Shown piece by piece: positions 16,450 through 64,000 of a stretch of 64,000 nt of DNA. The notes beneath the pieces were generated by a model. The model was given only the letters and a program-made list of their open reading frames with translations, searched no databases and was not told the DNA's origin. The position numbers were made by a program, and so were the translations under genes. The stretch covers positions 14,283 to 78,282 of the forward strand of contig VEMY01000009.1 in the NCBI GenBank assembly GCA_009711825.1, given 5' to 3'. Within the stretch, counting starts at the first letter, position 1. The number at the start of each line of letters is the position of its first letter. This DNA comes from Bacillota bacterium (lineage in GTDB: Bacteria > Bacillota > Proteinivoracia > UBA4975 > VEMY01).

Positions 16450-16450
16450 A

Positions 16451-29045: not shown

Positions 29046-29066
29046 GTAGGAGGAGTTAGCCATTCA

Positions 29067-29460: not shown

Positions 29461-29491
29461 AAAAAAACACACCCACAACGGGATGTGCTTG
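29461..29491 (-). terminator. Rho-independent terminator directly after the cysS 3' remnant (probable ancestral cysS terminator)
   Basis: Minus strand reads CACATCCC-gtt-GTGGGTGTG followed by TTTTTTT. Confidence 0.55.
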
Positions 29492-29502
29492 CTCACTAAT
29501 TG

Positions 29503-29538
29503 CCGGGCTTATACTCCCAGACAGTCCTTTACTTGGTG
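29503..29538 (-). repeat. Degenerate copy of the last about 12 codons of cysS (left direct repeat)
   Basis: 20 of 20 then 12 of 16 nt identical to 36702-36737. In the cysS frame it reads [12 protein letters not shown], versus authentic [14 protein letters not shown]. Confidence 0.8.
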
Positions 29539-29674
29539 CCATGGGATTATCTTTTTTGCGTGTCTGAAAGAGCCTTCTGGCTGATCCGCACGAAAAAATA
29601 TTACAAAGTACCTAATACATTCCTGTCATGTGAGCACATTAACTCAATTTAACACGTAAATTGTTACTTTTTGC

Positions 29675-29703
29675 TTGACCAGCTAGTTTAATACGCGTAT
29701 AAT
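29675..29703 (+). promoter_or_regulatory. Sigma-A-type promoter of the islet operon
   Basis: TTGACC, 17-nt spacer, TATAAT. Confidence 0.65.
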
Positions 29704-29766
29704 ACAGATGTAACAAAAGTTAACTAATTTAATGACAACAAACTGTTTGGTGCGGAGGTTGATATT

Positions 29767-30528: not shown

Positions 30529-30575
30529 TGTATTGTCGGTAATTTTTAATGGTAAATTAACGAAAGGGTGTGTAA

Positions 30576-31859: not shown

Positions 31860-31869
31860 GGATAGACAA

Positions 31870-31894
31870 GCGGGCAGAAACTCTGCCCGCTTAT
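31870..31894 (+). terminator. Intercistronic hairpin / partial terminator after EIIC
   Basis: GCGGGCAG-aaact-CTGCCCGC followed by TTAT. Confidence 0.5.
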
Positions 31895-31924
31895 AAATAA
31901 ACAATTATTGAAAGGGTGAAGCAG

Positions 31925-32233
31925 ATGAAGATTAAAATGGTTTTGCTCTGCGCGATGGGTATGTCCTCAAGTATGATTGTTAAGAGCATTCTCAGTGCAT
32001 CGGAGCCCCGGGGGTTGGAGATTGAACTGCCTTCTCATCCGGTTGTACATTACAAGGAGCTGGATTATAGTGATGTGGACCTGATTCTGCTAGCACCCCA
32101 GGTGCGGAACCAGAAAAGTGAAATTGAAACATATTGCGAAGGGGTACCAGTTGTTCAAATCGGTATGCGTGAGTATGGGCTAATTAAAGGCGAAGAAATT
32201 CTTGAACAGGCCTTAAAAGAGTTAAAAAAATAA
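31925..32233 (+). CDS. PTS EIIB component (lactose/cellobiose family)
   Basis: MKIKMVLLCAMGMSSSMIV active-site Cys loop. ATG at 31925 is preferred over GTG at 31916 on RBS spacing. Confidence 0.8.
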   Translation: MKIKMVLLCAMGMSSSMIVKSILSASEPRGLEIELPSHPVVHYKELDYSDVDLILLAPQVRNQKSEIETYCEGVPVVQIGMREYGLIKGEEILEQALKELKK

Positions 32234-32254
32234 TTACATCAAGAGGTGTTTGAC

Positions 32255-33262
32255 ATGAATCCATTTGTTCAGGAGATGCTTACTCAGGGTGAGGTCATGC
32301 GTGAGTGTATTAAGCAATATAATTCTGAGAATATAAATAATCAGGAAGCTCTTGATAAAATAAAGTTGTTATTTCAGTCCGATCGGTATAACCGTATAAT
32401 ATTTGCCGGAATGGGCAGTTCTTATTATGCACCTTATTCTGTCGCCGGGTATTTGACCTCACAGGGAATTCCGGCAATTGTTTCTAATGCCTACGAGTTA
32501 TGTCACCATCAATTTGAGTTGTTGTCTGAGGATACACTACTGGTGGTTGTGTCTCAATCTGGGGCATCTCCGGAAGTTGTTGAATTGATTGAAAAAGCTA
32601 AGGCGAGAACTACAGTAGTTGGGATTGTTAATCAACCAACCAGCCCAGTTGCCGCTCGAGTTGATATTTCACTCTTTATGCACTCTGGTTATGAAGCACA
32701 CATTTCCAGTAAAAGTTACTTGTGCACTTTGGTGGTGCTCCAAATGTTAGCACTACATCTAACCGGTGGAGTGAAAGCTCAGCACACTAAATTATTTGAG
32801 GAGATTGCCGATTGGGTATCCGACTACTTGGCAAGATTCACTGATGATACACCTGCATTAGGTGATTTTCTTAATGGGACAACCAGTTATGATTTTTTAG
32901 CTAGCGGTGCTGCTATGAGTTCGGCACGCCAAGCAGCCCTTATATTCCGTGAAGGGCCCTGTGTAACCGCCACAGCAGTAGAAATCTCTGATTTTTCCCA
33001 TGGCTGGGATCTTTCCGTTTCCCCCGGCTACACCGCCTTTATTTTTGACTCTGATGGGAAAAAAGACTCTATAGAGGAAAAAATGAGGAACCACATCATT
33101 GACAAGGGTGGAAAAGTTGTGTTGATTACATCTGCTTCAGTTCAGTCTACAGAATCGCTCATGGTTATCAAGCACCCTAAAGTACAGGAAGATTGGGCGC
33201 CTATGCTGCAGATTATACCTTGTAATACCATCATGGGTTGGTTAATGGGGGCTGAAAGTTAA
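32255..33262 (+). CDS. Double-SIS protein, FrlB/GlmS-isomerase-like (sugar-amine phosphate deglycase/isomerase)
   Basis: About 335 aa. IIFAGMGSSYYA and VVVSQSGASPEVVE are SIS motifs. Size matches FrlB-type proteins. Confidence 0.75.
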   Translation: MNPFVQEMLTQGEVMRECIKQYNSENINNQEALDKIKLLFQSDRYNRIIFAGMGSSYYAPYSVAGYLTSQGIPAIVSNAYELCHHQFELLSEDTLLVVVSQSGASPEVVELIEKAKARTTVVGIVNQPTSPVAARVDISLFMHSGYEAHISSKSYLCTLVVLQMLALHLTGGVKAQHTKLFEEIADWVSDYLARFTDDTPALGDFLNGTTSYDFLASGAAMSSARQAALIFREGPCVTATAVEISDFSHGWDLSVSPGYTAFIFDSDGKKDSIEEKMRNHIIDKGGKVVLITSASVQSTESLMVIKHPKVQEDWAPMLQIIPCNTIMGWLMGAES

Positions 33263-33993
33263 TGATATTTGATGCTCATAATCATATCGGATTTCGCAAA
33301 GGTCTTGAGTATCCTGTAGAAAAGCTAATAGGAGAAATGGATGCCGCTAATATAGACAGGGCTGTGGTTTTTAGTTTTCCTGAACAAATTGATAACGATT
33401 ATGTTGCTGAAAGTGTTAAGAGGTTTTCTGATAGACTAGTGGGGTTCGCTCAGGTTAACCCTTGGAGCCAAGACGCTGAGTTAGTATTAAAGCGTTGCGT
33501 AGAAGACTTGGGTCTAAAAGGCTTAAAATTACACCCTGTGAGACATGGCTATGCCTTTGACAATCACACCATATTGGATCCAATTTTTTCATTGTGTGAG
33601 AGATATTCTATACCAGTTCTTGCATATGGCGGTGCCAATGTATTGAGTAGTCCCAATATGTTCGAGGAAATGGCTCAGACGTTTCCCTCAGTTAATTTCA
33701 TTCTCGCCCACGGCGGCCAAATGTATGAAACGCGGTCTGCAATAGGTGTGGCTAAGCGCAGGCCAAATGTATATATTGAGACTTCGGCGATGTTCGCAAA
33801 TAGAGTCGAATCTTTGTATAAGGAAGTAGGGCCTGAGAAGATTGTTATGGGGACAGATAAACCATATGGTGATTTCGCAATCGAACTGGAGAAAATTCAA
33901 CTGGTGATTGCTGAGCCAGAAGTCAGAGAAAGAATTACTTGCCACAATTTGAGAAAACTGTTGGGTGAAAAGGTGATGAACTATGATTATTGA
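33262..33993 (+). CDS. Amidohydrolase-2 (TIM-barrel metal-dependent hydrolase/lactonase-like), copy 1
   Basis: 243 aa. MIFDAHNHIG metal-binding start, LKGLKLHP, ILAHGG and GTDKPYG blocks. TAATG coupling to the upstream gene. Confidence 0.7.
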   Translation: MIFDAHNHIGFRKGLEYPVEKLIGEMDAANIDRAVVFSFPEQIDNDYVAESVKRFSDRLVGFAQVNPWSQDAELVLKRCVEDLGLKGLKLHPVRHGYAFDNHTILDPIFSLCERYSIPVLAYGGANVLSSPNMFEEMAQTFPSVNFILAHGGQMYETRSAIGVAKRRPNVYIETSAMFANRVESLYKEVGPEKIVMGTDKPYGDFAIELEKIQLVIAEPEVRERITCHNLRKLLGEKVMNYDY

Positions 33994-34711
33994 TTCTCAT
34001 AACCATCTTGGTACACGAAAAGGGGAGCATTTTCCCATCGAAGAGTTGCTTAAGTGGCTTGAAAACGCAGGGGTTGATGCCTGCGTGGTCACTACTCATC
34101 CAGAGGCAATTAATAATGATTATGTGGCGGAAGCTCAAGCTAATTACTCTGACCGCATCATTGGGTTTGCGGTAGTTAATCCTTGGGATTGGGAGGCTGA
34201 AAGTGAGTTAGAACGTTGCCTAGGAACCCTTAATCTTAAAGGACTTAAGTTGAATCCTATCCGACATGGCTACGCATTAGACAGGCATCAAATTGTCGAT
34301 CCGTTATTTGCGATTTGCGAAAAATACCATGTACCTGTCCTATGTCATGGGGGTTCGGATTTGTTTACGATGCCTGGGAAATTTGCGGAGATGGCGGCCA
34401 GTTTCCCGAAAGTTCCGCTAATTCTTGCCCATATCGGCGAACCGGACGCTGTGGAAAGTGCTATACAGGTTGCCAAGCGTTATGACAATGTCTATGTTGA
34501 TACTGCTGGCATTAGGCTAGATACGTTGAAACAGGCTATCGAGCACTTGGACCCTGAGAAGATTTTAATGGGTACCGATGCATCTTGGGGTCGGTTCGAA
34601 TTGTCGATGGAGTTGGTCCGGAAAGCAACTTCAGACCAAAGAACAAGACAATTAATAATGGGTGAAAACATCGCAAAATTGTTATCTTGGCCCGTAAGTG
34701 AAAGGAGCTAA
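33983..34711 (+). CDS. Amidohydrolase-2, copy 2 (tandem paralog)
   Basis: 242 aa. MIIDSHNHLG, LKGLKLNP, ILAHIG and GTDASWG are collinear with copy 1. 11-nt overlap with copy 1. Confidence 0.7.
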   Translation: MIIDSHNHLGTRKGEHFPIEELLKWLENAGVDACVVTTHPEAINNDYVAEAQANYSDRIIGFAVVNPWDWEAESELERCLGTLNLKGLKLNPIRHGYALDRHQIVDPLFAICEKYHVPVLCHGGSDLFTMPGKFAEMAASFPKVPLILAHIGEPDAVESAIQVAKRYDNVYVDTAGIRLDTLKQAIEHLDPEKILMGTDASWGRFELSMELVRKATSDQRTRQLIMGENIAKLLSWPVSERS

Positions 34712-34714
34712 CTT

Positions 34715-35041
34715 ATGAATCTTCAGGAACTCGAAGCCGTGTGCATGGAGATGATTGCTAACGCCGGCGAAGGCAGGTCAAAGGTCTTGGAGGCTGCAGA
34801 TTGTTTTGCTGATGGAAACCCACAACGAGGCGCACAGTTATTAGAAGAAGCAGAGAAGCACATACATGATGCTCATCAAATACAGTTTTTAAAACTTTTG
34901 CAACCTCAGGCTGCGGGTGAGACAATTCCGTTTCACTTGCTTCTGATTCATGCTATGGATTTGTTGATGATGGCAATGTCAGAAAAAACATTGGTTGAGA
35001 AGATGGTTAGGATGAACAAGTCAGATACGGGGGGCTCTTAG
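34715..35041 (+). CDS. PTS EIIA component (lactose/cellobiose family)
   Basis: 108 aa helical protein. EMIANAGEGRSKVLEA...HDAHQIQ contains the conserved His context. Confidence 0.8.
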   Translation: MNLQELEAVCMEMIANAGEGRSKVLEAADCFADGNPQRGAQLLEEAEKHIHDAHQIQFLKLLQPQAAGETIPFHLLLIHAMDLLMMAMSEKTLVEKMVRMNKSDTGGS

Positions 35042-35397
35042 TGAAAATAGGAAGAAAAATTGTAGAAAAACCGTGGGGTACTGAGGAATGGATTGCGCAT
35101 AATGAATTTTACGTGTTAAGAATCCTCAATATCAAGAAAGGTGCCCGGGTTAGTCTGCAGTATCATGAGCAAAAAGTTGAGAGTCTTTATATTGATAAGG
35201 GCTCCGCCATCTATACGTTTCAACGCCCCGGAGGTGAGGTGGAGGAACGGATAATTAAGGCCGGGGATATCCTGGAGCATCGTCCGTATGAGATCCACCG
35301 TGAAGAGGCTTTGGAAGATATGAGAATCATTGAAGTCTCCACTCCAGAGATAGATGATATAATTCGGTTGGATGACGATTATGGCCGAAAATCTTAA
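35041..35397 (+). CDS. Cupin-domain protein (type II mannose-6-P-isomerase C-terminal-like)
   Basis: 118 aa. KPWGTEEW...GARVSLQYHEQKVESLYIDKGSA cupin motif. Confidence 0.65.
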   Translation: MKIGRKIVEKPWGTEEWIAHNEFYVLRILNIKKGARVSLQYHEQKVESLYIDKGSAIYTFQRPGGEVEERIIKAGDILEHRPYEIHREEALEDMRIIEVSTPEIDDIIRLDDDYGRKS

Positions 35398-35456
35398 TAT
35401 AGCTTAACGGGGTCTGAAACAGGCTCCGTTATTATTATTGAGGAAGGTGAAAATAT

Positions 35457-36578
35457 TTGAAAACTCTTAGAATAGGAATGTTAGGTTTTGGGAATATTGC
35501 AAAAGTTCATGCTCTTGCCATTGAAGCAATGCCCTATATACTTGATAACGTAAGTTATGTTCCTTCAATTAAAAAAATCTATAAACCAGGAAAGCTCAAG
35601 AACAGATGGTTGCAGTCAAAGCATGTATCCAATATAGAAGCGATTGTTGAAGATAAAAAAATTGATATTGTTGATATATGCAGTCCGAATAGCGCACACA
35701 GGCAACAGGCTTGTACAGCGATTCAAAAAGGTAAAGCAGTATACCTGGAAAAGCCATTAGGATTAAACCTTAATGAAGCCAAACAGATTACTGACGCGTT
35801 AGGTTGCTGGGGTCCAGTGTTGAATCAGGTTGCTTTTATGTACAGGTTCATGCCAGCGATGGTTGCATTGCGTGATCTTGTGCAAGATGGACAATTAGGT
35901 GAGATCTTTAACTTTCGATTTGATGCTCTGCATTCCAGCTATTTAAGCGAAGAAAGAGCTTTAGGCTGGAAGTTGAATGCAAAGGAGTCTGGGGGAGGAC
36001 CACTGCTAGATTTAGGAGTGCACCTTGCCGATTCAATTCGCTTCTGTCTCGGAGAAATAAAGACAGTATCTACTACACTAGGGACTGTTGTCAAGGAGCG
36101 TCCTTTGGCAGATGGCTCTCGTGGAACAGTGGACGTTGAGGACTGGGCATATGTCAATATGAGGTTAAGGAATGGTGCTAGGGGAATATTGAACGTTTCC
36201 CGGGTTGCCGCGCTTGCGGAAGAGCGCACGACGTTTGAGGTTTACGGAAGTCTGGGTAGCGCACTTTTCGAAATCCGGCAGCCTCGTTCGCTTCGCGTGT
36301 TCAGGCATAAAATTGGAAAAGAAGAACTAGTCGCTAACCCTGTTTATTCCGATTGGGGGGAATACCTGTCAACAATATATCCTCCCAAAAAGCTGTCCCT
36401 AGGCTGGTTGGCTGACGCACACTTCGCTAGCATGGCGAACACATTTAACAGCTTCACTGCAGGAGAGATTCTAAGAAAGGAAGCCCCTGATTTCCATGAG
36501 GCGAGAATGTCTCAAGCTGTTATAGAGGCTGCTTACACTTCTGCTGTTAGAAGTGCCCCTGTAGAGGTTAGCAATTAA
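35457..36578 (+). CDS. Gfo/Idh/MocA-family NAD(P)-dependent oxidoreductase
   Basis: 373 aa. LRIGMLGFGNIAKVH Rossmann start and the AVYLEKPL motif. Confidence 0.8.
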   Translation: MKTLRIGMLGFGNIAKVHALAIEAMPYILDNVSYVPSIKKIYKPGKLKNRWLQSKHVSNIEAIVEDKKIDIVDICSPNSAHRQQACTAIQKGKAVYLEKPLGLNLNEAKQITDALGCWGPVLNQVAFMYRFMPAMVALRDLVQDGQLGEIFNFRFDALHSSYLSEERALGWKLNAKESGGGPLLDLGVHLADSIRFCLGEIKTVSTTLGTVVKERPLADGSRGTVDVEDWAYVNMRLRNGARGILNVSRVAALAEERTTFEVYGSLGSALFEIRQPRSLRVFRHKIGKEELVANPVYSDWGEYLSTIYPPKKLSLGWLADAHFASMANTFNSFTAGEILRKEAPDFHEARMSQAVIEAAYTSAVRSAPVEVSN

Positions 36579-36694
36579 ATCTTCTTTTTGGTGTTTCACA
36601 TTGTGTTCTATCACGTTTCCTCGTCAATCCTTTAAACATAAATCCCCCAAGGCAGCGATAGCATGACCTTGCTACTGCAATGGGGGAATATTAT

Positions 36695-48405: not shown

Positions 48406-48637
48406 TGCCTGCACCTCCTGAACATGTTAGGGTAAATATTCTAGCTAAATAGTGTTTATCCTGCCCGGCTTTTCGCACACATTTTGGAAGCCTACAAAAT
48501 TAACGGATTAAATTTTTACATAAGCCAAGCTCTCCAAAGCTCTAGAACAATCTGAGTAAAGGGTTAGCGATAACTACGTTGAATAGTAATAATAGTGCAG
48601 AAACTTCGCGTAAAAAGAATACTCGGTGGAGGTGACA

Positions 48638-50251
48638 ATGCTGAAGCGATTTCTTGGTGTAACTGTTTCCCTGTTGCTCCTATTTACAATGGTCGGCTGC
48701 AAGGGCTATGAAGGCAGCACAGATACTGTCAACAGTGTCCAGCTCACTGACGACGGCGGCTATATCCTCGCCGGAGATACTGTCTACCGCAATCAGGGGC
48801 GGGAGGCCCTAATTATTAAGACTGATGCGGATGGCAATGTGGAGTGGCGCCTTAATTTTGCGGGCCTTGGTCTCGCTATCGCCCGTGACGTTCAACAGGC
48901 GGACGATGGCGGCTACATCGTGGTGGGAACTACACAGCTTTCTGAAGCAAGCAATAATGATGTTCTGCTTGCCAAGGTGGACGCCCAGGGAGATAAGGAG
49001 TGGTTCCAGACCTATGGTGGCGACGGAGCTGACTATGCTTACTCTGTGCAACAAACCCCCGACGGGGGCTATGTTTTGGCTGGTAGCACCAATTCTTTGG
49101 GCACCGGCAATACTGATGCCTGGCTGATCAAGACCGACGCCGGGGGGGAAGAGGAGTGGTCCCAAACCTACGGTGGCCCAGAAAGAGATTACGCCAGCTC
49201 ACTGCATATCTCTCCCGACGGCGGCTATATCCTGGCCGGAACTGCGACCAAGGATAGTGTCAACGGGTGGTTAGTCAAGACCGATGTCCGGGGCAATAAA
49301 GAGTGGGACCAAAGCTATGGCGGCGACGAAAATGACTATATCCTCTCCATGCAGGCTACCGCAGACGGCGGCTATGTCCTGGCAGGCAGCTCGTGGTCTC
49401 TGGGCGACGATTATTCTGCCGGCTGGTTAGTAAAGACTGACGCCCAGGGGAATGAAGAGTGGGGCCAAAGCTTTGGCGGAAATGCAGGGGATGTGTTCAC
49501 CGATGTCCGCCAAACCCGAGATGGGGGATATATTATCTCGGGCGATACCCGCTCTTATGCAACTGAGGACGCATATGTCGTCGGTTGGTTGGTGAAGACC
49601 GATGCCGGAGGTAATGAGGAATGGTCGCGAACTTTCGAGGAACCCCTGCTGAGCTTTATTTATGCAGTCCGGGAACTTCCGGGAGATGGCTATATTCTCG
49701 TCGGTACAGACCACAGCACCAGCCTGGCGACCAGCTATTTGCTGAAGGTAGACCCTCAGGGGGATGTGGAATGGTTCCAGACCTTTGAAGGCGCCGCAGG
49801 TGTAGCCGATACAATTCTGTTGCTTGCCCTGCTCTTAACTGTGCTGTTGTTTAGCGCGCTCTACTTCCTTACTTACTATCGGGACATGGAACAGAGGGGG
49901 GAACGTAAACTAATCTGGCTGCTCAAATTCTTGTTCCTCGGCCCCATCGCCGCCGCCTGGTATAAGGTGTACCGCAAGCAGGAGGCGGAAACGGATCAGG
50001 GAAGCAATATTTATCGGTTGGCCAAGGGTTTTCTCTTGCCCTGGAGCTTGTATGTGTTGGCGCTACCGGCCTTGCTCTTTGGGATAATTGTGCTCTTTGA
50101 CACCTCGGTGGGCGTGGAGCATATCGGCGAGTCGGCCTTCTGGGGCGTAGTAGTCTACATGCTTTATATCTTGCCATTCTGGGTGCTTTCGTTAATTGTC
50201 CCGATTGCTGTCATGATGTTTAGCAGGGGGCCAAAGAAAACAAAATTGTAG
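48638..50251 (+). CDS. Lipoprotein-signal protein with seven tandem about 52-aa repeats (beta-propeller-like) and a C-terminal 4-TM domain
   Basis: Lipobox LLFTMVGC. Seven DGGY(I/V)LAG...WL(V/I)KTD..GNEEW.Q.(Y/F)GG units. Four hydrophobic helices after aa 390. Confidence 0.65.
   Translation: MLKRFLGVTVSLLLLFTMVGCKGYEGSTDTVNSVQLTDDGGYILAGDTVYRNQGREALIIKTDADGNVEWRLNFAGLGLAIARDVQQADDGGYIVVGTTQLSEASNNDVLLAKVDAQGDKEWFQTYGGDGADYAYSVQQTPDGGYVLAGSTNSLGTGNTDAWLIKTDAGGEEEWSQTYGGPERDYASSLHISPDGGYILAGTATKDSVNGWLVKTDVRGNKEWDQSYGGDENDYILSMQATADGGYVLAGSSWSLGDDYSAGWLVKTDAQGNEEWGQSFGGNAGDVFTDVRQTRDGGYIISGDTRSYATEDAYVVGWLVKTDAGGNEEWSRTFEEPLLSFIYAVRELPGDGYILVGTDHSTSLATSYLLKVDPQGDVEWFQTFEGAAGVADTILLLALLLTVLLFSALYFLTYYRDMEQRGERKLIWLLKFLFLGPIAAAWYKVYRKQEAETDQGSNIYRLAKGFLLPWSLYVLALPALLFGIIVLFDTSVGVEHIGESAFWGVVVYMLYILPFWVLSLIVPIAVMMFSRGPKKTKL
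48737..49792 (+). repeat. Intragenic tandem repeat, 7 units of about 155 nt
   Basis: GGY tripeptides recur at aa 44, 95, 147, 199, 248, 300 and 355 (spacing 49-55 aa). Confidence 0.8.
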
Positions 50252-52718: not shown

Positions 52719-53402
52719 ATGCCTCACGAGCAGTTAAGAACAATAGAAGGTGGAAGGGTTCTCGATCTTTGCACAGGGGATGGTGGTTTTGTCCACCATT
52801 ATATAAAACAGTATATTAATTATACAGAGATAATTGGTATCGACACAGATGAGCAAATTCTACAGGCAGCAAGGGAAAAGTTTAAAGACGAGCAAATTTC
52901 CTTCGAGTTTGCCGACATATACAACTTGGCTTATCCGCAGGAGAGTTTTAACACTGTTTGTTTGTCCAATTCCCTGCACCACTTACCGGAACCCCAAAGG
53001 GTCTTAGAAATTATGCAGGGCCTTGTTCCCAAGGGGGGATACGTAATAATCAATGAGATGTTTAAAGATAACCAGACGCTGCAGCAACAGTCCCATGTGG
53101 ATATACACCATTTCTTTGCCCAAATCGATGAGATTAGGGGGATGTATCACCAAGAGACTTACAGAAAACAGGATATCTTAGCTATGGTAAAGTCCTTGGA
53201 ATGGGAATCCCTGACCTGGTATGAACATATGTGGCCCAAGACCTCTGACGATGTGGAACCCTTGTTGGAAAGTTGCTATAAGTTTCTGGAGCAGTTTCAG
53301 GAACACCAAGGATTAAAGGCAGAGTTTGACTCCATCGCTAGCCGGATAAGGAAGAACGGGTATGCCTTTGCTACCCAGCTAATGGTGATCGCAAAAAAGT
53401 AA
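52719..53402 (+). CDS. Class I SAM-dependent methyltransferase
   Basis: Motif I VLDLCTGDGGF, post-I GIDTDE, and NSLHHL. Confidence 0.8.
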   Translation: MPHEQLRTIEGGRVLDLCTGDGGFVHHYIKQYINYTEIIGIDTDEQILQAAREKFKDEQISFEFADIYNLAYPQESFNTVCLSNSLHHLPEPQRVLEIMQGLVPKGGYVIINEMFKDNQTLQQQSHVDIHHFFAQIDEIRGMYHQETYRKQDILAMVKSLEWESLTWYEHMWPKTSDDVEPLLESCYKFLEQFQEHQGLKAEFDSIASRIRKNGYAFATQLMVIAKK

Positions 53403-55272: not shown

Positions 55273-55794
55273 ATGTCAGGGAAATTGGGTGCAGTACTGA
55301 AAAGGTTATTTATGGTCGCCTTGGTAGCTGTCATGGTGCTTTCGATTGTTTATTCAATTCAGTTCTACCGTGTAACCGATAATGTTCAGAGGCGTTTTGT
55401 CCTCAATAGTCAAGGTGCATATGCTCAACTATCAAATGCAATCCGAATGGTTGAGGCAGGAAGTCTTCATAGTGCTGTATGGTATTTGACTGATGCCAGA
55501 ACATATGCGTTTTCCAATCATCAAGTTTTGTCCGAAAGTGGTATTTTCTCAGGAGTATGGTTCTTTAAGCCCGTTTCTCATGAGGCAATAATTCTAACAG
55601 ATGACACTATACAGGCCGTTGATAGTGCTATGACGGGGTTTTATAATGGCAGCGGCGAACTGAACCCGGGGGATATGGCGCGGATTGAGCAAATCCGCGA
55701 AAAGTATAAAGCCTTTCTGGATTATATCGACATTTCATCAGAGCCATCTTACTTTACACTGAGGCGTAAGTTAAGAGATTATGCCAGTCCTTAA
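55273..55794 (+). CDS. Hypothetical protein with single N-terminal TM helix
   Basis: 173 aa, RBS GAGGGGG. TM LFMVALVAVMVLSIVYSIQFY. No recognisable domain. Confidence 0.5.
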   Translation: MSGKLGAVLKRLFMVALVAVMVLSIVYSIQFYRVTDNVQRRFVLNSQGAYAQLSNAIRMVEAGSLHSAVWYLTDARTYAFSNHQVLSESGIFSGVWFFKPVSHEAIILTDDTIQAVDSAMTGFYNGSGELNPGDMARIEQIREKYKAFLDYIDISSEPSYFTLRRKLRDYASP

Positions 55795-55800
55795 GCAGCG

Positions 55801-55842
55801 AAGGTGCCGACTCCGGGGGAGGGAGGTGGCACCTTTTTATTT
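55801..55842 (+). terminator. Rho-independent terminator
   Basis: AAGGTGCC...GGCACCTT followed by TTTATTT. Confidence 0.65.
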
Positions 55843-55879: not shown

Positions 55880-55925
55880 GAAATGAAAGGATATTCAGGC
55901 AAAATGTAGAATTATCTTACTATGT
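55880..55925 (+). repeat. Promoter-like 45-nt repeat, copy 2 (upstream of the PLD-helicase gene)
   Basis: GAAATGAAAGGATATTCAGGCAAAATGTAGAATTATCTTACTATGT. Same -35 / extended -10 layout as copy 1. Confidence 0.65.
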
Positions 55926-55960
55926 CACGGGTTTGGTTTAAAATTGATAGGGGTGGTTTA

Positions 55961-58312
55961 GTGCGTAACTCCATCGTTGGTCTTGATGACCACCTTATTT
56001 TGCATCTGAGTGATTCCATCAGGCGGGCAAGGCGCATCCGCTTTATTGTCGCGTTCTTAATGGAGTCTGGATCCAAATTGTTGGCAAGCTATCTGGCAGA
56101 AGCAGCCCAGAGGGGTGTACCCATCCAGATTCTCACTGGCAAGTATATGAGCATCACTGAGCCCTCAGCAATATACCACTTGTATAATGTGCTGGGTAAC
56201 AATGTAGAAATCCGTTTCTTCGATGAGAAGGTTCGGTCTTTCCACCCCAAAGCTTATTTGTTCGATTACGACGATGACAGCGAAATTATAATTGGGTCAT
56301 CGAACATATCCCACTCCGCGCTGACAACAGGTGTGGAATGGAATTACCGGTTTAAAAAGAGCATCGCTCCTGAAGACTATGAGATTTTTAGCAGAACATT
56401 TGATGATATGTTTGCCAACCGCTCTGTCCCCGCAACAGCTAAAGAGTTGACCGCATACTCCTTGAACTGGCGGAAGCCGAGATTAGTAGTAGTTGAGTCT
56501 CCTACTGCTTTACCTGAGGCCCCAGAGCCCTTTGGTGCCCAGGTAGAGGCTTTATACCACCTGAACCGAGCCCGAGAAGAGGGAATTGACAAGGGACTTG
56601 TTGTGGCTGCCACCGGGGTGGGTAAAACCTATCTTAGTGCATTCGACTCAGAGAAGTTTAAACGGGTTTTGTTTGTGGCTCACAGGGAAGAAATTCTACG
56701 CCAAACCGAAGCCACCTACAGAACTGTTAGACCAAATGCACACATCGGCTATTACACGGGTACCCAAAAAGACGAGCGTATGGATGTTTGCTTGGCTACG
56801 GTCCAGACCTTGGGCAGGGAGAATCATCTGCTCAACTTCCCACCGGATTACTTTGATTACATGGTTGTTGATGAATTCCATCATGCCGCAGCTGACAGTT
56901 ATGTGCGGATAATAGAGCATTTTAAGCCTGAGTTTCTGCTGGGGCTTACTGCCACACCTTACCGAACTGACAACCGGGACATTTTCGCTCTCTGCGATGA
57001 CAATGTTGTTTATGAACTGTACCTTAAAGATGCCATCAACAGGGACATGCTGGTACCGTTTCGATACTACGGCATTTATGATGCCACCGACTATTCGGGA
57101 ATTGCTGTCAGAAACGGTCAGTATGTAGTAGAAGAGCTGGAGAAAGAGCTGTCCCAAAAAGAAAGGGCCAATTTGGTGTTGGAGAAATATAAGGCTCTGG
57201 CTGGCCAAAAGACCCTGGGTTTCTGCGCCAGTATTGCCCATGCAGAATACATGGCTAGATATTTTCAGGAACAGGGGATTGCTGCCTATGCTGTCCACAG
57301 CGGGGAGGATACGGAATATACGCTTGAACGCAAACAAGCTGTGAAGGCGCTGGAAGATGGGAAGATAAAGGTGATATTTGCTGTAGATATATTTAATGAA
57401 GGCGTTGATATCCCTGCTCTGGATACCGTCCTGTTTTTGCGACCGACAGAGTCTTTTGTAGTCTTTCTGCAGCAACTGGGACGGGGGTTACGGAAGTATG
57501 ACGGCAAGGACTATCTGACTGTCTTGGACTTCATTGGCAATTACAAACGTGCCCATTATATTCCTGCCCTGTTGGCGGGGGAGAATCCCCAGGATGAAAG
57601 CGGGCGCAGAAGACGGCCCCAGGAGCAGGAGTATCCAGCAGAATGTCATGTGCAGTTTGATTTCCGTGTTCTGGATCTTTTCCGGGAGATGGTCAAACGG
57701 GACCCGCTCGCTCAACGCATGCGTGATGATTATTACCGGATTAAAGATGAACTGGGCAGGCGGCCTACGAGGGTGGATGTCTACCTGGGTTCTGACATAC
57801 CGATGCGAGAATTCCTTAAACAAGGTTGGTTGGCTTTTCTCAACAGTGTTGAGGATTTAAGTTCTATTGAGCAAGCATGGATTGATACCGAAGCAGAGAA
57901 GTTTTTGATAAATATCGAGAAGACGTCAATGTCCAAGGCCTATAAGTTGCCTACCATCGGTGCTCTGCTGCAGGGCGGGACAATTAGAAAACAGGTCAGT
58001 ATGGACGAGGTTGGTAAACGGTTCATGGATTTCTATGTGAATAAGAAACTGCACCAAAAGGATTTGCAGGATAAGAGCAATCGGAATTGGCCAAAGTGGA
58101 GCCAAGAGCAATTTACGAAACTGGCCCGGAAAAATCCGGTTCACTTCCTGTCCAAAGGCAAGTTCTTTAACTACGACGAGATAAACCGGACTTTCTATCT
58201 GGATTCCGAGCTGGAGGATTATTTATCGCCGGCGCTGGCTGAGCACGTGCAAGATATTCTGGAGTATAAGCGGATTGATTATTTCCGCAAACGTTACCGG
58301 GAGGATGATTAA
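55961..58312 (+). CDS. Fusion protein: PLD (HKD) nuclease domain + SF2 (ResIII/DExH) helicase + DUF3427-like C-terminal domain
   Basis: HKD motif HPKAYLFD...GSSNIS (His codon at 56243). Walker A ATGVGKTY, DExH VVDEFHHAA, TATPYR, QQLGRGLR. C-terminal about 200 aa are DUF3427-like. GTG at 55961 (GGGGTGG 4 nt upstream) is preferred over ATG 55922, which lies inside the promoter repeat. Confidence 0.85.
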   Translation: MRNSIVGLDDHLILHLSDSIRRARRIRFIVAFLMESGSKLLASYLAEAAQRGVPIQILTGKYMSITEPSAIYHLYNVLGNNVEIRFFDEKVRSFHPKAYLFDYDDDSEIIIGSSNISHSALTTGVEWNYRFKKSIAPEDYEIFSRTFDDMFANRSVPATAKELTAYSLNWRKPRLVVVESPTALPEAPEPFGAQVEALYHLNRAREEGIDKGLVVAATGVGKTYLSAFDSEKFKRVLFVAHREEILRQTEATYRTVRPNAHIGYYTGTQKDERMDVCLATVQTLGRENHLLNFPPDYFDYMVVDEFHHAAADSYVRIIEHFKPEFLLGLTATPYRTDNRDIFALCDDNVVYELYLKDAINRDMLVPFRYYGIYDATDYSGIAVRNGQYVVEELEKELSQKERANLVLEKYKALAGQKTLGFCASIAHAEYMARYFQEQGIAAYAVHSGEDTEYTLERKQAVKALEDGKIKVIFAVDIFNEGVDIPALDTVLFLRPTESFVVFLQQLGRGLRKYDGKDYLTVLDFIGNYKRAHYIPALLAGENPQDESGRRRRPQEQEYPAECHVQFDFRVLDLFREMVKRDPLAQRMRDDYYRIKDELGRRPTRVDVYLGSDIPMREFLKQGWLAFLNSVEDLSSIEQAWIDTEAEKFLINIEKTSMSKAYKLPTIGALLQGGTIRKQVSMDEVGKRFMDFYVNKKLHQKDLQDKSNRNWPKWSQEQFTKLARKNPVHFLSKGKFFNYDEINRTFYLDSELEDYLSPALAEHVQDILEYKRIDYFRKRYREDD

Positions 58313-58708
58313 ATGAAGGAATGTATTTTCTGCAAGCTGCCGGAGACAGAGCTGCTTTGCGAGAACGATCTGGCCAGGGCTTTTTATGACAAGTTTCCGG
58401 TAAACGAGGGCCATGTTCTGATAACGCCCAAGCGGCATGTGGTTGATTATTTTGGTGCTACTCCGGAAGAGCTGGCGGCTATAAATGAATTGGTTGCCGA
58501 GGTTAAAGAGATTCTGGACAAAAAATATAACCCCGATGGCTATAACATCGGGGTAAATGTGGGACATGCCGGTGGGCAAACGATATTCCATTTGCACGTT
58601 CATGTGATTCCGAGGTTCGAGGGGGATGTTGAGGATCCTAGGGGTGGGGTCAGGAATTTGAAGCCGAATCTGGTTGAGTATGTCGCTAAAACCACTCAAG
58701 ATTTATAA
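58313..58708 (+). CDS. HIT-family (histidine triad) nucleotide hydrolase/transferase
   Basis: 131 aa. CIFC N-terminal zinc-type motif, NEGHVLITPKRH, and the histidine triad HLHVHVIPR. The ATG directly abuts the helicase TAA. Confidence 0.9.
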   Translation: MKECIFCKLPETELLCENDLARAFYDKFPVNEGHVLITPKRHVVDYFGATPEELAAINELVAEVKEILDKKYNPDGYNIGVNVGHAGGQTIFHLHVHVIPRFEGDVEDPRGGVRNLKPNLVEYVAKTTQDL

Positions 58709-58820: not shown

Positions 58821-60659
58821 TCACTGATTGCAGATTTCTTTAAAGAAGCCTATGTCTTTATCTTTAAGCGTTCCAACAACTACGCCTCGATCTAACAGAC
58901 GGTTACCAGATTCGCAGCAGGTTTCCGGGAGCAAAGAACAATTGTGACAAGCAGCAAGATTACATGATTCTGGCCCCTGCCCAGCAGACTGAATACAAAT
59001 GGGGTCAGACGTGCACCACTGCGCATTTTTCACAGCATCAACTATGGTATCCTCGATACGACCAGTCTCGCCCTGACGAACCAAGCCGCCAAGCGATCCT
59101 TCAGAATCACCAGAAGCCGTATAAATTAATACCCCATACATTTTGTGTTCATTGTGCGTCTTCTCGCAATAGATACGTTCGCGAAGCGCTGAGCTCCCAT
59201 ACCCGCAGTCAAAGCTAAATTGATTAACTAGCAAATGTGCAAAGGTATGAATTAATACAAATTCAGGGCGAAGATTACCTTCGGCTCTTTGCCCGAAATT
59301 GGATTCTTTGTGTGCGCGATTCAATGTTTCAATACGTTCCCGTACATTTCTTTTTTGCGCCCATCGCTGTAGCTCCTCCACATTAAATTCGAAGAAGATA
59401 CCTTCGCCGTATATTTCAATAGCTGGTAACCAATTCTCGCTACCGGTTCGAAGCAATTTTTTCCTTTCGGACACAGCAGCATCATTTGGTTCCAATCGGG
59501 AGAATCCAACAAATGCACGTGTTTCACGAAGTTTCGGCACCAGTGATATGCTCTTAAAATATCTCCTTATTATCGGATTGTAGCGGTCAATGGGATAATT
59601 TTTCGAGTGAAAGTCCTGCGCATCGCTTCCGCTATCCTTGATTAGTACTTTATACTCCGCAAGGCGGTACTCGTCTTCTGACGTCTCTTCAGTAACATCT
59701 GATATACCTTTGATGTTTGCTTCACGATTAAGGAAAGCCATATAAAGAGTATCGCGCTCAATTCCGAAGTTGTCGGCAAGGTAATTTATTATCTCACGAT
59801 TCCATTCTCCATTGACCCGATGGGTTCTCAGCTTGTTATAATGCAAATCAAGAATACCAACAACCTTACGGCTGGTCGATTCATCGTCCGTTGGGATATG
59901 AATGGAGCTGCGATTATCTGCGAACCAGACATTTGTAGCACCTCTCAGAAGAACTTTTATATCTTCATTGCCGCAAATGTGTTCATCATCACCCTCAATA
60001 CCGAGCCAAGGTTTTGCACCTTTACATATGTAAGCAATTCTTTGAAGGGCGCCTGGGCGGGTTGCGCCGGCAATGGACTTTCTGGCTCCACAAGAACACT
60101 CGTAAAACACACCTGTGAGGGCAGCTGACGTGCCGCCTGTACTCCTGCGGATTTTGCAGGTGTCCGGGCTATATGGATGATCCTCTCCATTGTGCAGCCA
60201 TTCGGCCACGGGAAAATCATCAATATGCCCCTCGGGACATACTACTACAAAACGTTCTGGCACCAGCTTTTTCTTCCTGTACTTCGGGTTACATTTTCTA
60301 CCATTCGGCCATTGGTGACCATCACATTCTGGGTGTGGTTCATAGTAGGTGGTTTTGCGCATGGTTCCACAAAAGGGGCAATAATGCCAAGTTGGGAATC
60401 TAACAGCAGGTATCTTAAGGTGACAATTTTCCGGATCTGCGTTGTGTTCTCTGAAATCTGGTGGCCAGCGCAACTCTTTTACGCCAAGTCTTTTTTGCAA
60501 ACGCTCATCCTCAATAAGGAAAGGATGAATGTTATTATATCGCCACATATCAAGTCCGGCAATCATCAACGACTCATCGTTTGGGAATGGGACAATGGCA
60601 CCTACTCCCCACGGACCAATTAAGGCACTTCGCCGAATAGGTCTGTTTGAATATGCCAT
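58821..60659 (-). CDS. DUF1998-domain protein, DISARM DrmB-like
   Basis: 612 aa from ATG 60659 (AAGGAGG within the end of the upstream gene). N-terminus RRSALIGPWGVGAIVPF...GLDMW, zinc-ribbon-like CPFCGT, VVVCPEGHIDDFPVAEW, and C-terminal CNLAACHNCSLLPETCCESGNRLLDR, the DUF1998 Cys cluster. Confidence 0.8.
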   Translation of the reverse strand: MAYSNRPIRRSALIGPWGVGAIVPFPNDESLMIAGLDMWRYNNIHPFLIEDERLQKRLGVKELRWPPDFREHNADPENCHLKIPAVRFPTWHYCPFCGTMRKTTYYEPHPECDGHQWPNGRKCNPKYRKKKLVPERFVVVCPEGHIDDFPVAEWLHNGEDHPYSPDTCKIRRSTGGTSAALTGVFYECSCGARKSIAGATRPGALQRIAYICKGAKPWLGIEGDDEHICGNEDIKVLLRGATNVWFADNRSSIHIPTDDESTSRKVVGILDLHYNKLRTHRVNGEWNREIINYLADNFGIERDTLYMAFLNREANIKGISDVTEETSEDEYRLAEYKVLIKDSGSDAQDFHSKNYPIDRYNPIIRRYFKSISLVPKLRETRAFVGFSRLEPNDAAVSERKKLLRTGSENWLPAIEIYGEGIFFEFNVEELQRWAQKRNVRERIETLNRAHKESNFGQRAEGNLRPEFVLIHTFAHLLVNQFSFDCGYGSSALRERIYCEKTHNEHKMYGVLIYTASGDSEGSLGGLVRQGETGRIEDTIVDAVKNAQWCTSDPICIQSAGQGPESCNLAACHNCSLLPETCCESGNRLLDRGVVVGTLKDKDIGFFKEICNQ

Positions 60660-60661
60660 TT

Positions 60662-63600
60662 CTAGTCCTCCTTTGTCGTATATCGGTTGGCGAGCACATC
60701 TGCTTCGCAAGATGCATCTACACTGCGCATGGATGACGGGGTTTCCATACCACGTTGCCCCCAAGCTTCATTCCTGTGACCTCCAGCAAAATACATCAAC
60801 GGCACAACATTACCATAAGACCAGTCCCTGTTACGCTCTGGCTCCCATTTCTGAGGATTCCAATCCTCCCAACGCTGGATGATGTGTTCCATTTGTGTAA
60901 GAGTGGCTTCCAACTCGTCAGGGTCAATAGCCTCGATTCGGTTTTCAATAACTTGGCGTATATGATTGTAAAGAGCCTCATCTGGCAGGTGTGGAGGGTC
61001 AGCATTGAAAGCTGCATCGCCCTTCAATCGCATCATACCAATCATTATTGCATGGAGGGCCCGCTCCCGAACCGGAGCAGAGAATGGGGTAACACTGGTC
61101 GGCTCTACATTGCAATATACACGAGAATGATATCCCTTAAAATGCTCATAGTGTGATTTATCTCTCGGCCTGCCTGGACGATACAGGACAAACACAATAC
61201 CTGGAGCTTTTGCAGGATTTCGGCCTACGCGGCTGGTCGCCTGTATATATTCAGACGTGGTCTTTGGCTGACCTGCAACCGTCATTAGACCTAATCTCGG
61301 AACATCTAGGCCAACAGAAATCATGTTGGTTGCCAGACAGATGTCAATAGGATGTTCTCTGACCTTTCCGTTTTCATCAAGCTCTGCCGGGTATCGAGTG
61401 TTCAGATTCGCTAGGCTGGCTGTAACTTTATCTCCAGCGATCCGACTGGTCAGTTCTTCGTCGCAATAAATGTATCTCCTACGCTTATTATATTCCTCTT
61501 TGGAGTACCGCTTATTGTAATATCTGCGCTTGTACATCACGTCAAGATGCTGATCGATGTCTGCGCGAATCCAGGTGGCGGCTTGTCCGAGCTCGCGAAT
61601 ACTGTTGAAGTAGCCCACGTTGGTCCAATAAGGATCTCTGTGGGTTTCGTCGCCAACATCCATTGCTTTGGCACCATACAACAAAGCCGAAAACAGACGT
61701 ATGGCCGTCGTGGTGTCCGAGGGGGAGCCAGTGGCCAAGATTCCAACATATTGACGACCATTTTGCTTCCGATCTTCCTTAGCAAAAAAGGAATTCCCTG
61801 CATCAAGGCCGGAAGGAGGGAACTGGAATACCTTACTGGTCCCACAACCATACAGTGAATGACACTGCTCCTTTGCACGACTGATTGTAGCCGTAGAGGC
61901 GATCACCTTCGGACGAATTTCCCTGCCGTTCGCTCTTGTTGTGCACAACTCGCTTATCAATGTCTCATAATGACCAACCATAGAGCCTAACGGGCCTGCA
62001 ATCAGATGCAGCTCGTCCTGAATGATAAGGTCAGGAGATGTCACCTTTATCCCGTCCTTATATCCAAAGAGGCCCTGTGCCTGAGGACGAAAAGGGAGCA
62101 TAGCAAACTTATCCACAGTCCCCAAAAGCAATGTGGGTGTGGATTCATAAATGCTATCATCTATAACATACATAGGAAGAGCATAGCTGCCTGTAGAGAA
62201 ATCACAAGCATTTTCTGTATTTCTGCACTGAAAAATGATCCTGTATTTGCCTTGTTGTCCTCTGGCTTTTCTATATCCAGGAGTCTCATAGATACCATGC
62301 TTTCGCTCAACAACTCCCATTTGCGCACCGCACCAAGGGCATTTGAGCACGACAAAAGGGTTGCTGCCGCCACTGTTTTTCATTTTATTGTATTTCTTCA
62401 CGGCATCATCCATTTTGTTAGGGGTCGTCGTGCCACCAACCCATAATCCAATACTGATCCTCGCCTTCCCATACAAATCTTCGTGATCTCTCCGAATCAG
62501 GTCGCAGGCGCAAATCATAGCAGCTGCACGTTCGTACTGTTGTGCTGTCAATAATCGCAACGTATATCTCATCAGGATGGCCGTTCCGGAATCATTCTTG
62601 TCCATAAGCCTTCTGATAAAAATCGCATAGGCCGACAGCCCAAGATAGGCCTCGGTTTTTCCTCCGCCGGTGGGAAACCAGATTAAATCAACAATCTCGC
62701 GTTCATCGCAGCTGCGGTCATACATAGAATGTAAATTCATTAGAATAAACGCGAGCTGAAATGGCCTCCATTTACCGTATTTATCCTTTTCTCCATACCA
62801 CGTGTTTTTATCGGTCACAGAAGGCAAGGTTTTTATAGGATCTACAAGGCGAATATCTCGAACTCCGTCATCCTCCCATTTTTGCAGAGGAAGATTATAG
62901 TGCAACTGCTGCATGAGCATGGCGAGATTCATGTGCTGAAAAGCCGTGCGAATCAACTTGTTTTCTTCCAAGAGCTTCACTCCGCTGCGCATACGGTTTA
63001 GGCAGGATTTGCAGTTTTCAATATGCCTTTCGGCCGTGCGGACATATCTGCCCTCCAGCTTTGACTTTTCGATCTCGAGACGGTTAATCCACTTCCCGTA
63101 CTCGGTGCACATGAGTTCCAGTTCGCGGACTGTATCCTCGAAGTCACCATGGGGACTCATTCCACGCATATCAAGTGTTACACCGGGAATAGTGCTCGGA
63201 ACAATAGGCTTTATCTCGTATGAGGGGAACACAGCGGATGAAATCCAGGATACTTTTTCAGCCGATTCGTCCCAATCGGCCGCACATCCATGCCCGATAG
63301 CATAATTGTGTACGTTGCGATAGAGCAGTTGGTTTGAGTCATAATCATTGTCCTGTGTATTGATACGCTGACTATTGGGTAGCGGGCAAAATCCCAGCTC
63401 CGAGTAGAGTTTAAACTTCACCTGAAAGAAACAATCGTCGTCCTTTACGGCATTTCCATCGTTCCTGTTTGTGTTTTCCAAGGTGAAAGTATAAATGGAG
63501 TAATCACCTCTGTTGTAGCGGTACGTCATGTCAAATTGCAGTCCCCGTGTGCCTGAAGGTATTTTGACTATGCCGTCCTGGGGTGATGGTAAATCAATGG

Positions 63601-64000
63601 GTTTTCCCTCATTATTCCAGAAGATTGCCCTTCGAGGGTATCGAACAATATCATTACCAGTAACCTTATCGGCCAATTTCAAAGTAGTATATACGCCTGC
63701 AGAGACCTCAATGTGAATTGTATCATTCTTTTTGAGAGCAGCGGTTAGGCTGATTGCCGACTGTCTATATGCATTGGAACGATTAATCAGCTCTTCGGCA
63801 TCCTCAAGATACTCTGTGCCATCTCCCGACCCTTTAGTCCAAGAATCAGGCTCTCCGGGATCTTCACGATCGTCTCCTCCGGCTTCTATTCCTTCTTCTT
63901 CCCGCGTTTCGGCATCACTATCAGTTGTCTTATGAGGAAATAGTACTCCTGCAATATAGCGAGTACGTGGCGGGTCAGTCATAAGAACTTCTTCACCATT
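60662..64000 (-). CDS. Large SF2 helicase, DISARM DrmA-like (probably 5'-truncated by the window edge)
   Basis: Motif I WFPTGGGKTEAYL (62651-62680), motif II IIQDELHL (62006-62017 region), ASTATIS, QATSRVGR. N-terminal RYIAGVLFP region. First in-window ATG is at 63982, but the frame stays open to nt 64000 and that ATG has no good RBS. Confidence 0.8.
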   Translation of the reverse strand, partial: NGEEVLMTDPPRTRYIAGVLFPHKTTDSDAETREEEGIEAGGDDREDPGEPDSWTKGSGDGTEYLEDAEELINRSNAYRQSAISLTAALKKNDTIHIEVSAGVYTTLKLADKVTGNDIVRYPRRAIFWNNEGKPIDLPSPQDGIVKIPSGTRGLQFDMTYRYNRGDYSIYTFTLENTNRNDGNAVKDDDCFFQVKFKLYSELGFCPLPNSQRINTQDNDYDSNQLLYRNVHNYAIGHGCAADWDESAEKVSWISSAVFPSYEIKPIVPSTIPGVTLDMRGMSPHGDFEDTVRELELMCTEYGKWINRLEIEKSKLEGRYVRTAERHIENCKSCLNRMRSGVKLLEENKLIRTAFQHMNLAMLMQQLHYNLPLQKWEDDGVRDIRLVDPIKTLPSVTDKNTWYGEKDKYGKWRPFQLAFILMNLHSMYDRSCDEREIVDLIWFPTGGGKTEAYLGLSAYAIFIRRLMDKNDSGTAILMRYTLRLLTAQQYERAAAMICACDLIRRDHEDLYGKARISIGLWVGGTTTPNKMDDAVKKYNKMKNSGGSNPFVVLKCPWCGAQMGVVERKHGIYETPGYRKARGQQGKYRIIFQCRNTENACDFSTGSYALPMYVIDDSIYESTPTLLLGTVDKFAMLPFRPQAQGLFGYKDGIKVTSPDLIIQDELHLIAGPLGSMVGHYETLISELCTTRANGREIRPKVIASTATISRAKEQCHSLYGCGTSKVFQFPPSGLDAGNSFFAKEDRKQNGRQYVGILATGSPSDTTTAIRLFSALLYGAKAMDVGDETHRDPYWTNVGYFNSIRELGQAATWIRADIDQHLDVMYKRRYYNKRYSKEEYNKRRRYIYCDEELTSRIAGDKVTASLANLNTRYPAELDENGKVREHPIDICLATNMISVGLDVPRLGLMTVAGQPKTTSEYIQATSRVGRNPAKAPGIVFVLYRPGRPRDKSHYEHFKGYHSRVYCNVEPTSVTPFSAPVRERALHAIMIGMMRLKGDAAFNADPPHLPDEALYNHIRQVIENRIEAIDPDELEATLTQMEHIIQRWEDWNPQKWEPERNRDWSYGNVVPLMYFAGGHRNEAWGQRGMETPSSMRSVDASCEADVLANRYTTKED

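Follow-up and report, generated by a model that had tools for sequence, protein, structure and literature searches.

The nuclease-HIT gene pair

The two genes described here lie next to each other on the forward strand of a 64,000 nt stretch of a Bacillota bacterium genome (GenBank assembly GCA_009711825.1, contig VEMY01000009.1, positions 14,283 to 78,282), which in its whole length is called the window and to which all positions refer. The first gene (55961–58312, +) encodes a nuclease-motor protein of the SauUSI type, with a phospholipase D (PLD)-like nuclease domain and a superfamily 2 (SF2) motor in one chain, and the second (58313–58708, +) encodes a histidine triad (HIT) protein of 131 aa.

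ORF calling and translation gave an open reading frame (ORF) for the large protein from ATG 55922 to TAA 58312 (+), encoding 796 aa, the numbering of which is used below. When 20 full-length homologues were aligned their N-terminal start coincided with a GTG at 55961, and this codon is preceded at a distance of 4 nt by a Shine-Dalgarno-like sequence, GGGGTGG (55950–55956, +), read directly from the DNA, while no ribosome-binding site was found ahead of the alternative ATG 55922. The product is therefore likely to be 783 aa long, starting at GTG 55961.

The nuclease domain (residues 32–161, 56015–56404, +; Pfam PLDc_2, E 1.2e-12) has a single HKD motif with the His codon of its HxK at position 56243, and is followed by an SF2 DExH helicase-like ATPase core (residues 205–542, 56534–57547, +) composed of Pfam ResIII (residues 205–348, E 1.1e-35) and Helicase_C (residues 424–524, E 1.3e-13), with the Walker A sequence GVGKT at 56615–56629. 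Invariant across the 20 homologues are H108/K110 (HxK) and G125-S-S-N128 in the PLD domain as well as G232/G234-K235-T236 (Walker A), D317-E-F-H320, T343-A-T-P346, Q517-Q-L-G-R-G522 and R524 in the motor, L523 being nearly so. An earlier reading of the DNA without any database search (the sequence-only reading) had proposed a single HKD domain together with a complete helicase in one chain and had placed the catalytic His codon at 56243, and the Pfam domains and invariant motifs bear this out.

The TAA stop of the nuclease gene (58310–58312) abuts the ATG of the HIT gene at 58313, and a Shine-Dalgarno sequence, GGGAGGA (58299–58305, +), lies within the 3'-terminal part of the nuclease gene and precedes that ATG by 7 nt. 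The HIT gene is, from this arrangement, predicted to be translationally coupled to the nuclease gene, and the direct succession of stop and start codons noted in the sequence-only reading was found at exactly these coordinates. The upstream gene is closed off by a terminator-like hairpin with a U-tract (55800–55842, +; RNA fold dG -23.2 kcal/mol, z -2.9), which marks the 5' limit of the two-gene unit. A scan for σ70-like promoters returned 6 sites against 5.4 expected by shuffling, the site at 55883–55912 matching 9 of 12 positions, so the promoter-like element earlier assigned to the pair does not stand above chance.

Relationship of the large protein to SauUSI

The top PADLOC models for the large protein were those of Type IV methyl-directed restriction enzymes (mREase_IV), with E-values of 2.1e-101 and 3e-94 over residues 28–559. 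The best relative by sequence in the PDB was SauUSI (7CLG, E 7.5e-95, residues 24–562 of the window protein), the PLD region aligning with SauUSI residues 39–190, and when a full-length AlphaFold model (predicted local distance difference test score, pLDDT, 79.8) was run through Foldseek 7CLG again ranked first (E 3.4e-40, 763 of 796 positions aligned), followed by RadD (E 8e-18, about 378 columns). The NCBIfam matches, among them RadD (E 4.6e-35, 121 bits against a cut-off of 720) and EcoAI HsdR, all fell far under their cut-offs. Sequence and structure searches thus place the large protein in the SauUSI family, whose members are ATP-dependent Type IV restriction enzymes made of one chain, and the earlier statement that the pair is not any named system does not hold for this component, with its mREase_IV match in PADLOC and SauUSI as nearest solved structure. 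A phage origin was considered and rejected, as the viral contigs of IMG/VR hold no full-length homologue and the top match, of 42% identity, covers only the motor.

SauUSI consists of a PLD domain (residues 1–191), an ATPase (221–617), a helical coupler (618–805) and an SRA-fold target recognition domain (806–953) (PMC7913695), and Pfam DUF3427 corresponds to the last part of the protein (PMC3141236). The window protein shares with it the N-terminal single-HKD PLD domain, the linker, the SF2 DExH translocase and the helical post-motor region, all in one chain, and a DNA methyltransferase is likewise not part of the two-gene unit, but it is ~160 aa shorter and is without the SRA/DUF3427 target recognition domain. 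Since this domain is absent, a specificity for 5-methylcytosine (5mC) or 5-hydroxymethylcytosine (5hmC) is unlikely. The restriction enzymes BfiI, NgoAVII/CglI and the END nucleases, whose sensor domains are exchangeable, are also modular and use an HxK PLD nuclease with two copies per active site, but in these the motor is lacking or resides on a separate subunit, and a HIT partner has been described for none of them.

The C-terminal region

The sequence-only reading had ended the protein in a DUF3427-like tail, and this had to be abandoned. Residues 543–796 gave no Pfam match even at E≤10, although the same method detected DUF3427 in three relatives (L098, L118 and L125), and a profile of residues 560–796 built from 16 sequences did not retrieve SauUSI (7CLG) from the PDB sequences. 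An AlphaFold2 model of the tail (pLDDT 89, predicted template modelling score 0.82) is mostly helical with two small hairpins and contains no SRA barrel, and Foldseek found nothing similar to it at E≤1e-3, the weak matches being mostly winged-helix proteins. The region is accordingly described as a helical, winged-helix-like C-terminal domain (residues 560–796, 57599–58309, +), the counterpart of the coupler region, with no SRA/DUF3427 after it.

When the tail profile was compared with the post-helicase region of L125, a metagenomic relative in which DUF3427 follows further downstream, the two aligned over 168 columns (hhalign probability 96.9%, E 1.5e-10). Searched against 1.84 billion representatives the profile matched 707 proteins with an E-value limit of 1e-3 and 257 representative clusters when this was tightened to 1e-10, and the domain forms the extreme C-terminus in proteins of ~780–840 aa while in relatives of 990–1140 aa it is internal, with further domains after it or an N-terminal partner fusion before it. 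The last ~235 aa are thus the counterpart of the helical coupler found in SauUSI-like enzymes. The chain stops after this coupler equivalent, at the point where additional C-terminal domains start in the longer relatives, and the window enzyme is a SauUSI relative minus the usual methyl-cytosine reader.

Some longer relatives (L125, 5980–10083; P0244, P0250 and P0253) carry a LexA-like Peptidase_S24 domain past the coupler region, in L125 between coupler and DUF3427, a possible sign that these variants are controlled by RecA or by damage to DNA.

The HIT protein

The HIT protein matches Pfam PF01230 with 91 bits (E 7.6e-26) against a cut-off of 21.5. Its histidine triad HLHVHV, recognised already in the sequence-only reading, is intact (codons of the triad at 58589–58603), and a CxxC motif is present at residues 4–7. 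Among 15 HIT proteins encoded as partners of the nuclease, H93, H95, H97, C4 and C7 are invariant, as is a C-terminal GD..P.GG.R motif (G104, D105, P109, G111, G112, R114). There are 46 HIT proteins in the PDB that match it, the best being uncharacterised structural-genomics HITs (top 3IMI, 5e-21), with Ap4A phosphorylase, Fhit and Hint all matching between 1e-8 and 1e-14, and the NCBIfam scores were all under cut-off. The PADLOC model of ThsC ('Thoeris type II') matched at 1.6e-11, over the generic HIT core only. ThsC is also a HIT-family accessory of a defence system, with a putative role, but thsA and thsB are not among the scanned neighbours of the window HIT: PADLOC found no match to ThsA or ThsB among seven adjacent proteins.

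Partner genes in homologous loci

To place the pair among its relatives 80 genome loci with full-length homologues of the nuclease (44–71% identity) were compared, mostly from Bacillota, with single contigs binned to metagenome-assembled genomes of Methanobrevibacter and Chloroflexota. A HIT gene, 50–81% identical to that of the window at the protein level, was found no more than 600 nt away from the nuclease gene in 33 of these loci: 21 of the 33 have it immediately downstream, separated by 44 nt or less, and 9 have it just upstream; in two further loci it lies upstream at 5–7 kb. The pairwise identities of nuclease and HIT co-vary across the 33 genomes (Mantel r 0.71, 0 of 2000 permutations), as expected of a co-inherited pair, a correlation to which shared species history contributes too.

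Clustering of the neighbouring genes, followed by searches of the loci with profile models built from the clusters, revealed three more recurrent partners. These are a MazG-like all-alpha protein of ~104 aa with EExxE and EELAD motifs (Pfam MazG-like E 3e-5, below cut-off), a TehB-like class I S-adenosylmethionine-dependent methyltransferase of ~200 aa, and a weakly HD-like protein of ~180 aa. The MazG-like gene is commoner than the HIT gene, being present in 52 of the 80 loci against 33. When only the 52 loci with at least 1.5 kb of flanking sequence on both sides were considered, a partner was found within 1.5 kb in 51. The arrangements were MazG-like only (18), HIT together with MazG-like (17), methyltransferase (7), HIT only (6) and methyltransferase together with HD-like (3), one locus having no partner. 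The HIT-only layout of the window is thus a minority form, common to its closest relatives L001 and L080; there is no MazG-like gene anywhere in the 64 kb, and neither a second HIT gene nor a partner-type (c3-type) methyltransferase was found elsewhere in the window. A 227 aa methyltransferase at 52719–53402 was examined as a candidate of the latter kind and rejected: at 22% identity (E 1e-5) it is no more than a generic class I relative.

Several partners are fused, to each other (HIT-MazG in L003 and L005) or to the nuclease chain. A MazG-like domain stands at the N-terminus of the PLD-helicase in P0215, P0237, P0253 and P0260 and follows the tail in the fragment P0133, P0220 has a methyltransferase at the N-terminus, and in L125 a single metagenomic ORF of 1367 aa reads HIT-PLD-ResIII-Helicase_C-Peptidase_S24-DUF3427. 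The HIT protein is one of several interchangeable, near-obligate partners of the nuclease. The two-gene pair of the sequence-only reading is therefore a real, conserved module of co-oriented genes and no chance neighbourhood, as judged from the 33 loci, the co-varying identities and the HIT-PLD-helicase fusion; the association stood while the role of HIT as the defining partner did not, the MazG-like gene being the more frequent.

In some of the loci two paralogous PLD-helicase genes are located close together (L023 8010–13844, L014 2356–7915, L017 2308–8300, L032 7989–13879), and in L023 the MazG-like and HIT genes lie between them. In L001, the closest relative, the HIT gene is followed shortly downstream by a 200 aa ORF (10475–11074) that matches only the N-terminal ~170 positions of the PADLOC models PbeA and 'PLD_Helicase', and may be a gene fragment.

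Gene neighbours of related HIT proteins

A search in the reverse direction was made with the 80 closest metagenomic relatives of the window HIT. Those of at least 58% identity are mostly encoded beside the nuclease gene (L082–L086), while most of those of 45–57% identity are not beside a PLD-helicase nuclease, although several lie near DUF3427-bearing PLD-helicases (L098, L118). In 29 of the 80 metagenome loci the HIT gene adjoins one for an HNH endonuclease of ~350 aa (L089–L160, e.g. L093 2544–3629 and L117 4424–6597), and some of these HITs are fused to an N-terminal class I methyltransferase domain (L109, L117). The N-terminal half of these HNH proteins matched no solved structure by sequence. 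An idea that HIT might desulfurise nucleoside phosphorothioates released by an HNH enzyme with a sulfur-binding domain was dropped as unsupported, because the HNH partners of the distant HITs match no solved sulfur-binding domain by sequence.

Eight HIT loci fall in clusters with an AprA-like flavoprotein, a context that looks metabolic rather than defensive. In L126, L132, L139, L147, L150, L151 and L154 a HIT of 46–51% identity stands at the end of a conserved cluster of this kind (FAD_binding_2 and Succ_DH_flav_C). Of the HIT loci, 27 have 2 kb or more of sequence to either side, and in 17 of these a nuclease gene, HNH or PLD/SF2, is found within 2 kb. Since others lie in AprA-like clusters, the HIT clade is mainly, not exclusively, a companion of nucleases.

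Genomic context and the neighbouring DISARM genes

Downstream the pair lies tail-to-tail with DISARM genes, as the sequence-only reading had described. The convergent drmB (58821–60764, -; NCBIfam DrmB_fam 454 bits, PADLOC DrmB 4.3e-68) is followed by drmA (60662–63982, -; DISARM_DrmAS 918 bits, just under the cut-off of 950, PADLOC DrmA 2.4e-220), and in the 112 nt between the stop codons of HIT and drmB no terminator is evident. The TTG start of drmB at 60764 is probably over-extended, because the ORF overlaps drmA by about 100 nt. The gene drmA runs to the end of the window and drmC was not seen after drmB. The GC content of 42–48% across 55–60 kb, compared with about 50% for the window, agrees with the lower-GC setting noted before.

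Of 81 loci only two, namely the window and L080, have the pair next to DISARM, and DrmA was detected in two of the 80 homologous loci, strongly in L080 and weakly in L076, there ~7 kb from the nuclease gene. L080, among the well-flanked loci the closest relative, shows 69% identity to the window in the nuclease, 80% in HIT and 89% in DrmA, and its gene order (5885–16909) is GajB-like UvrD helicase, nuclease, HIT, DrmMII (E 1e-165), an 870 aa ORF without any PADLOC match, NERD helicase and DrmA. The DrmMII gene, directly beside the pair, is the C5-methyltransferase gene of DISARM class 2. In both loci the pair flanks the DISARM genes, in differing orientations.

The genes to the left of the pair encode purine-catabolism-type enzymes, a PucR regulator, a beta-lactamase-fold protein, an AraC/GyrI regulator, a methyltransferase, a TetR regulator and an alpha/beta hydrolase. 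Over the 80 loci the flanks are not conserved, the nearest large neighbours (123 proteins) falling into 184 Pfam families. Neighbours of defence type, as raw counts, were AAA_21 (4), NERD (3), GmrSD (2) and SNF2 (2, SNF2/DrmD-like), and PADLOC matched Cas3, dGTPase, MzaB, AriA and AbiLi; transporters, kinases and chemoreceptors also occur. As the flanking genes are unconserved and of mixed type, the nuclease fits a mobile accessory gene, often in variable regions.

An ORF of 173 aa with an N-terminal hydrophobic helix is located directly upstream of the hairpin (55273–55794, +). It was rejected as a third component of the unit, since none of the homologous loci contains a counterpart and Pfam, PADLOC and NCBIfam all returned no match.

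Possible function of the pair

The best reading of the pair is a restriction-like defence role, and we hold it to be probable, though well short of certain, that a SauUSI-type nuclease and a HIT protein here make up a two-gene restriction-like defence module. By analogy with SauUSI two chains would pair via their single-HKD PLD domains to form one catalytic site, the SF2 motor would translocate on DNA with ATP, and the DNA would then be cut (PMC7913695; bioRxiv 10.1101/2025.10.16.682607). Given the missing reader, and the C5 methyltransferase in the DISARM cluster next to the pair in L080, 5mC is probably not the target of the window enzyme. The only feature common to the MazG-like, HIT and methyltransferase/HD partners is action on small nucleotide or base substrates. 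HIT may then hydrolyse a non-canonical or phage-derived nucleotide, a proposal to which we give somewhat less than an even chance. Removal of such nucleotides alongside the nuclease would starve phage replication; alternatively, it would benefit the host by keeping them out of its own DNA, where they could provoke self-cleavage.

Several points weigh against this interpretation. The pair has neither a reader domain nor a DNA methyltransferase to set a rule for self and non-self, many of the flanking genes are of housekeeping type, e.g. ABC transporters and chemotaxis receptors, and some HITs of 46–51% identity belong to the AprA-like metabolic clusters, which shows that the clade is not exclusively linked to defence. 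The helicase core also resembles that of the repair helicase RadD. A fusion of partner and nuclease is needless for sanitation of the nucleotide pool and would suit a regulatory or sensor role at least as well, and a methyltransferase in place of a hydrolase is hard to reconcile with one chemistry.

The fusions and the missing reader also fit a gating or sensor role. The partner, here HIT, would in such a case be the specificity arm of the system, binding or turning over a small nucleotide that arises upon infection and thereby turning the nuclease, which has no reader, on or off, much as ring nucleases time other systems. The near-obligatory pairing in a subfamily that has no reader domain, partner domains directly fused to the nuclease chain in several relatives and the conserved catalytic residues of the partner are all in line with this, but the partners are chemically disparate, hydrolases on the one hand and a methyltransferase on the other, and DUF3427-bearing relatives with a reader of their own carry partners too, so that we judge it rather unlikely. 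A wider form of the same thought, to which we attach a low and slightly smaller probability, is that reader-less SauUSI-type nucleases are licensed by the state of the nucleotide pool and not by a mark on the DNA, with HIT, the MazG-like protein or the methyltransferase detecting or consuming a phage-made or damage-derived nucleotide and so gating the nuclease. If true, a restriction enzyme would here be under the control of small-molecule surveillance.

The resemblance of the core to RadD, seen both in NCBIfam and with Foldseek, leads to an interpretation outside defence, in which the genes form a DNA repair or genome-sanitation operon where a RadD-like helicase-nuclease removes damaged or non-canonical DNA while house-cleaning enzymes clean the pool. 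Every partner family includes known house-cleaning enzymes, RadC-like genes are found near a few loci, and S24 (LexA-like) domains occur in the longer relatives. The RadD score is nevertheless far under its cut-off, the full-length alignment is with SauUSI, a much closer relative, and the genomic location is variable in a sample that includes contigs assigned to other phyla and to an archaeon; such an operon is improbable in our view.

The abutting stop and start codons and the near-obligatory pairing would also suit a toxin-antitoxin-like arrangement, with HIT binding and neutralising a self-toxic nuclease regardless of its own catalysis. This is very unlikely, as neither the His triad nor the GD..P.GG.R motif shows any variation, the gene order differs between loci (HIT is upstream in 12 of the 35 HIT-bearing ones) and the partner enzymes have unrelated folds. 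Least credible of all is that the pair serves as an accessory of the adjacent DISARM with its PLD domain replacing the missing DrmC, for although drmC was not seen after drmB, the pair flanks a DISARM cluster (DrmMII, DrmA) in L080 as well and the PLD domain weakly matches DrmC models (PADLOC 1.8e-6), DrmA was detected in just the two loci named above, the orientation differs between window and L080, the nuclease gene of the window is on the strand opposite the drm genes, and with NCBIfam DISARM_DrmC_I the score reaches 17.2 bits where 133 are required.

Relation to earlier reports

SauUSI is the main barrier to DNA transfer into Staphylococcus aureus. A putative pyrophosphohydrolase, SAUSA300_2432, was linked to sauUSI by Xu et al. 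(2011), who found such a neighbour for at least 60 SauUSI-like genes. That partner is a putative small nucleotide hydrolase with its gene conserved beside SauUSI-like genes, and the MazG-like partner in 52 of the 80 loci is the same phenomenon, but the window has HIT instead. The description of the pair as uncharacterised in the sequence-only reading thus has to be narrowed, as the pyrophosphohydrolase linkage has been known since 2011 while a HIT partner is unreported in the literature searched.

In that literature, with most subscription journals outside the search, there was no report of HIT, methyltransferase or HD partners, of the fusions or of the reader-less subfamily. Concerning HIT or MazG proteins together with restriction or defence nucleases only four items were found, namely the 2011 remark, a survey of His-Me finger nucleases in which one HNH group ('group 23') is encoded beside MazG genes, the HIT protein ThsC listed by PADLOC in some Thoeris loci, and a predicted MazG-like effector in PUA-HAD systems. 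Group 23 parallels the HNH-HIT pairs described above in being a stand-alone nuclease beside a nucleotide pyrophosphatase gene (MazG), but its fold differs from that of the window PLD nuclease, and the HNH proteins found here resemble it in their gene pairing.

The conserved nucleotide-hydrolase neighbour of SauUSI has been a footnote since 2011, and the window makes this 15-year-old loose end experimentally tractable. It belongs to a sizeable subfamily (the 257 clusters at E≤1e-10) whose members have lost the methyl-cytosine reader and nearly always come with a small nucleotide enzyme, in some cases as a fusion, which makes it a clean system for the role of the partner and for target choice by a reader-less restriction motor. 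The answer could reveal a link between restriction and control of the nucleotide pool and could explain the similar pairings of HIT and MazG with HNH nucleases.

Other features of the window

No tRNA genes were found in the window. An ORF of 541 aa at 48626–50251 (+) has no Pfam match. A second region of low GC content (41–45%) at 29000–36600 encodes a DeoR regulator, a PTS EIIC component, a SIS-domain protein and a GFO/IDH/MocA oxidoreductase, and looks like a sugar-utilisation island rather than one for defence.

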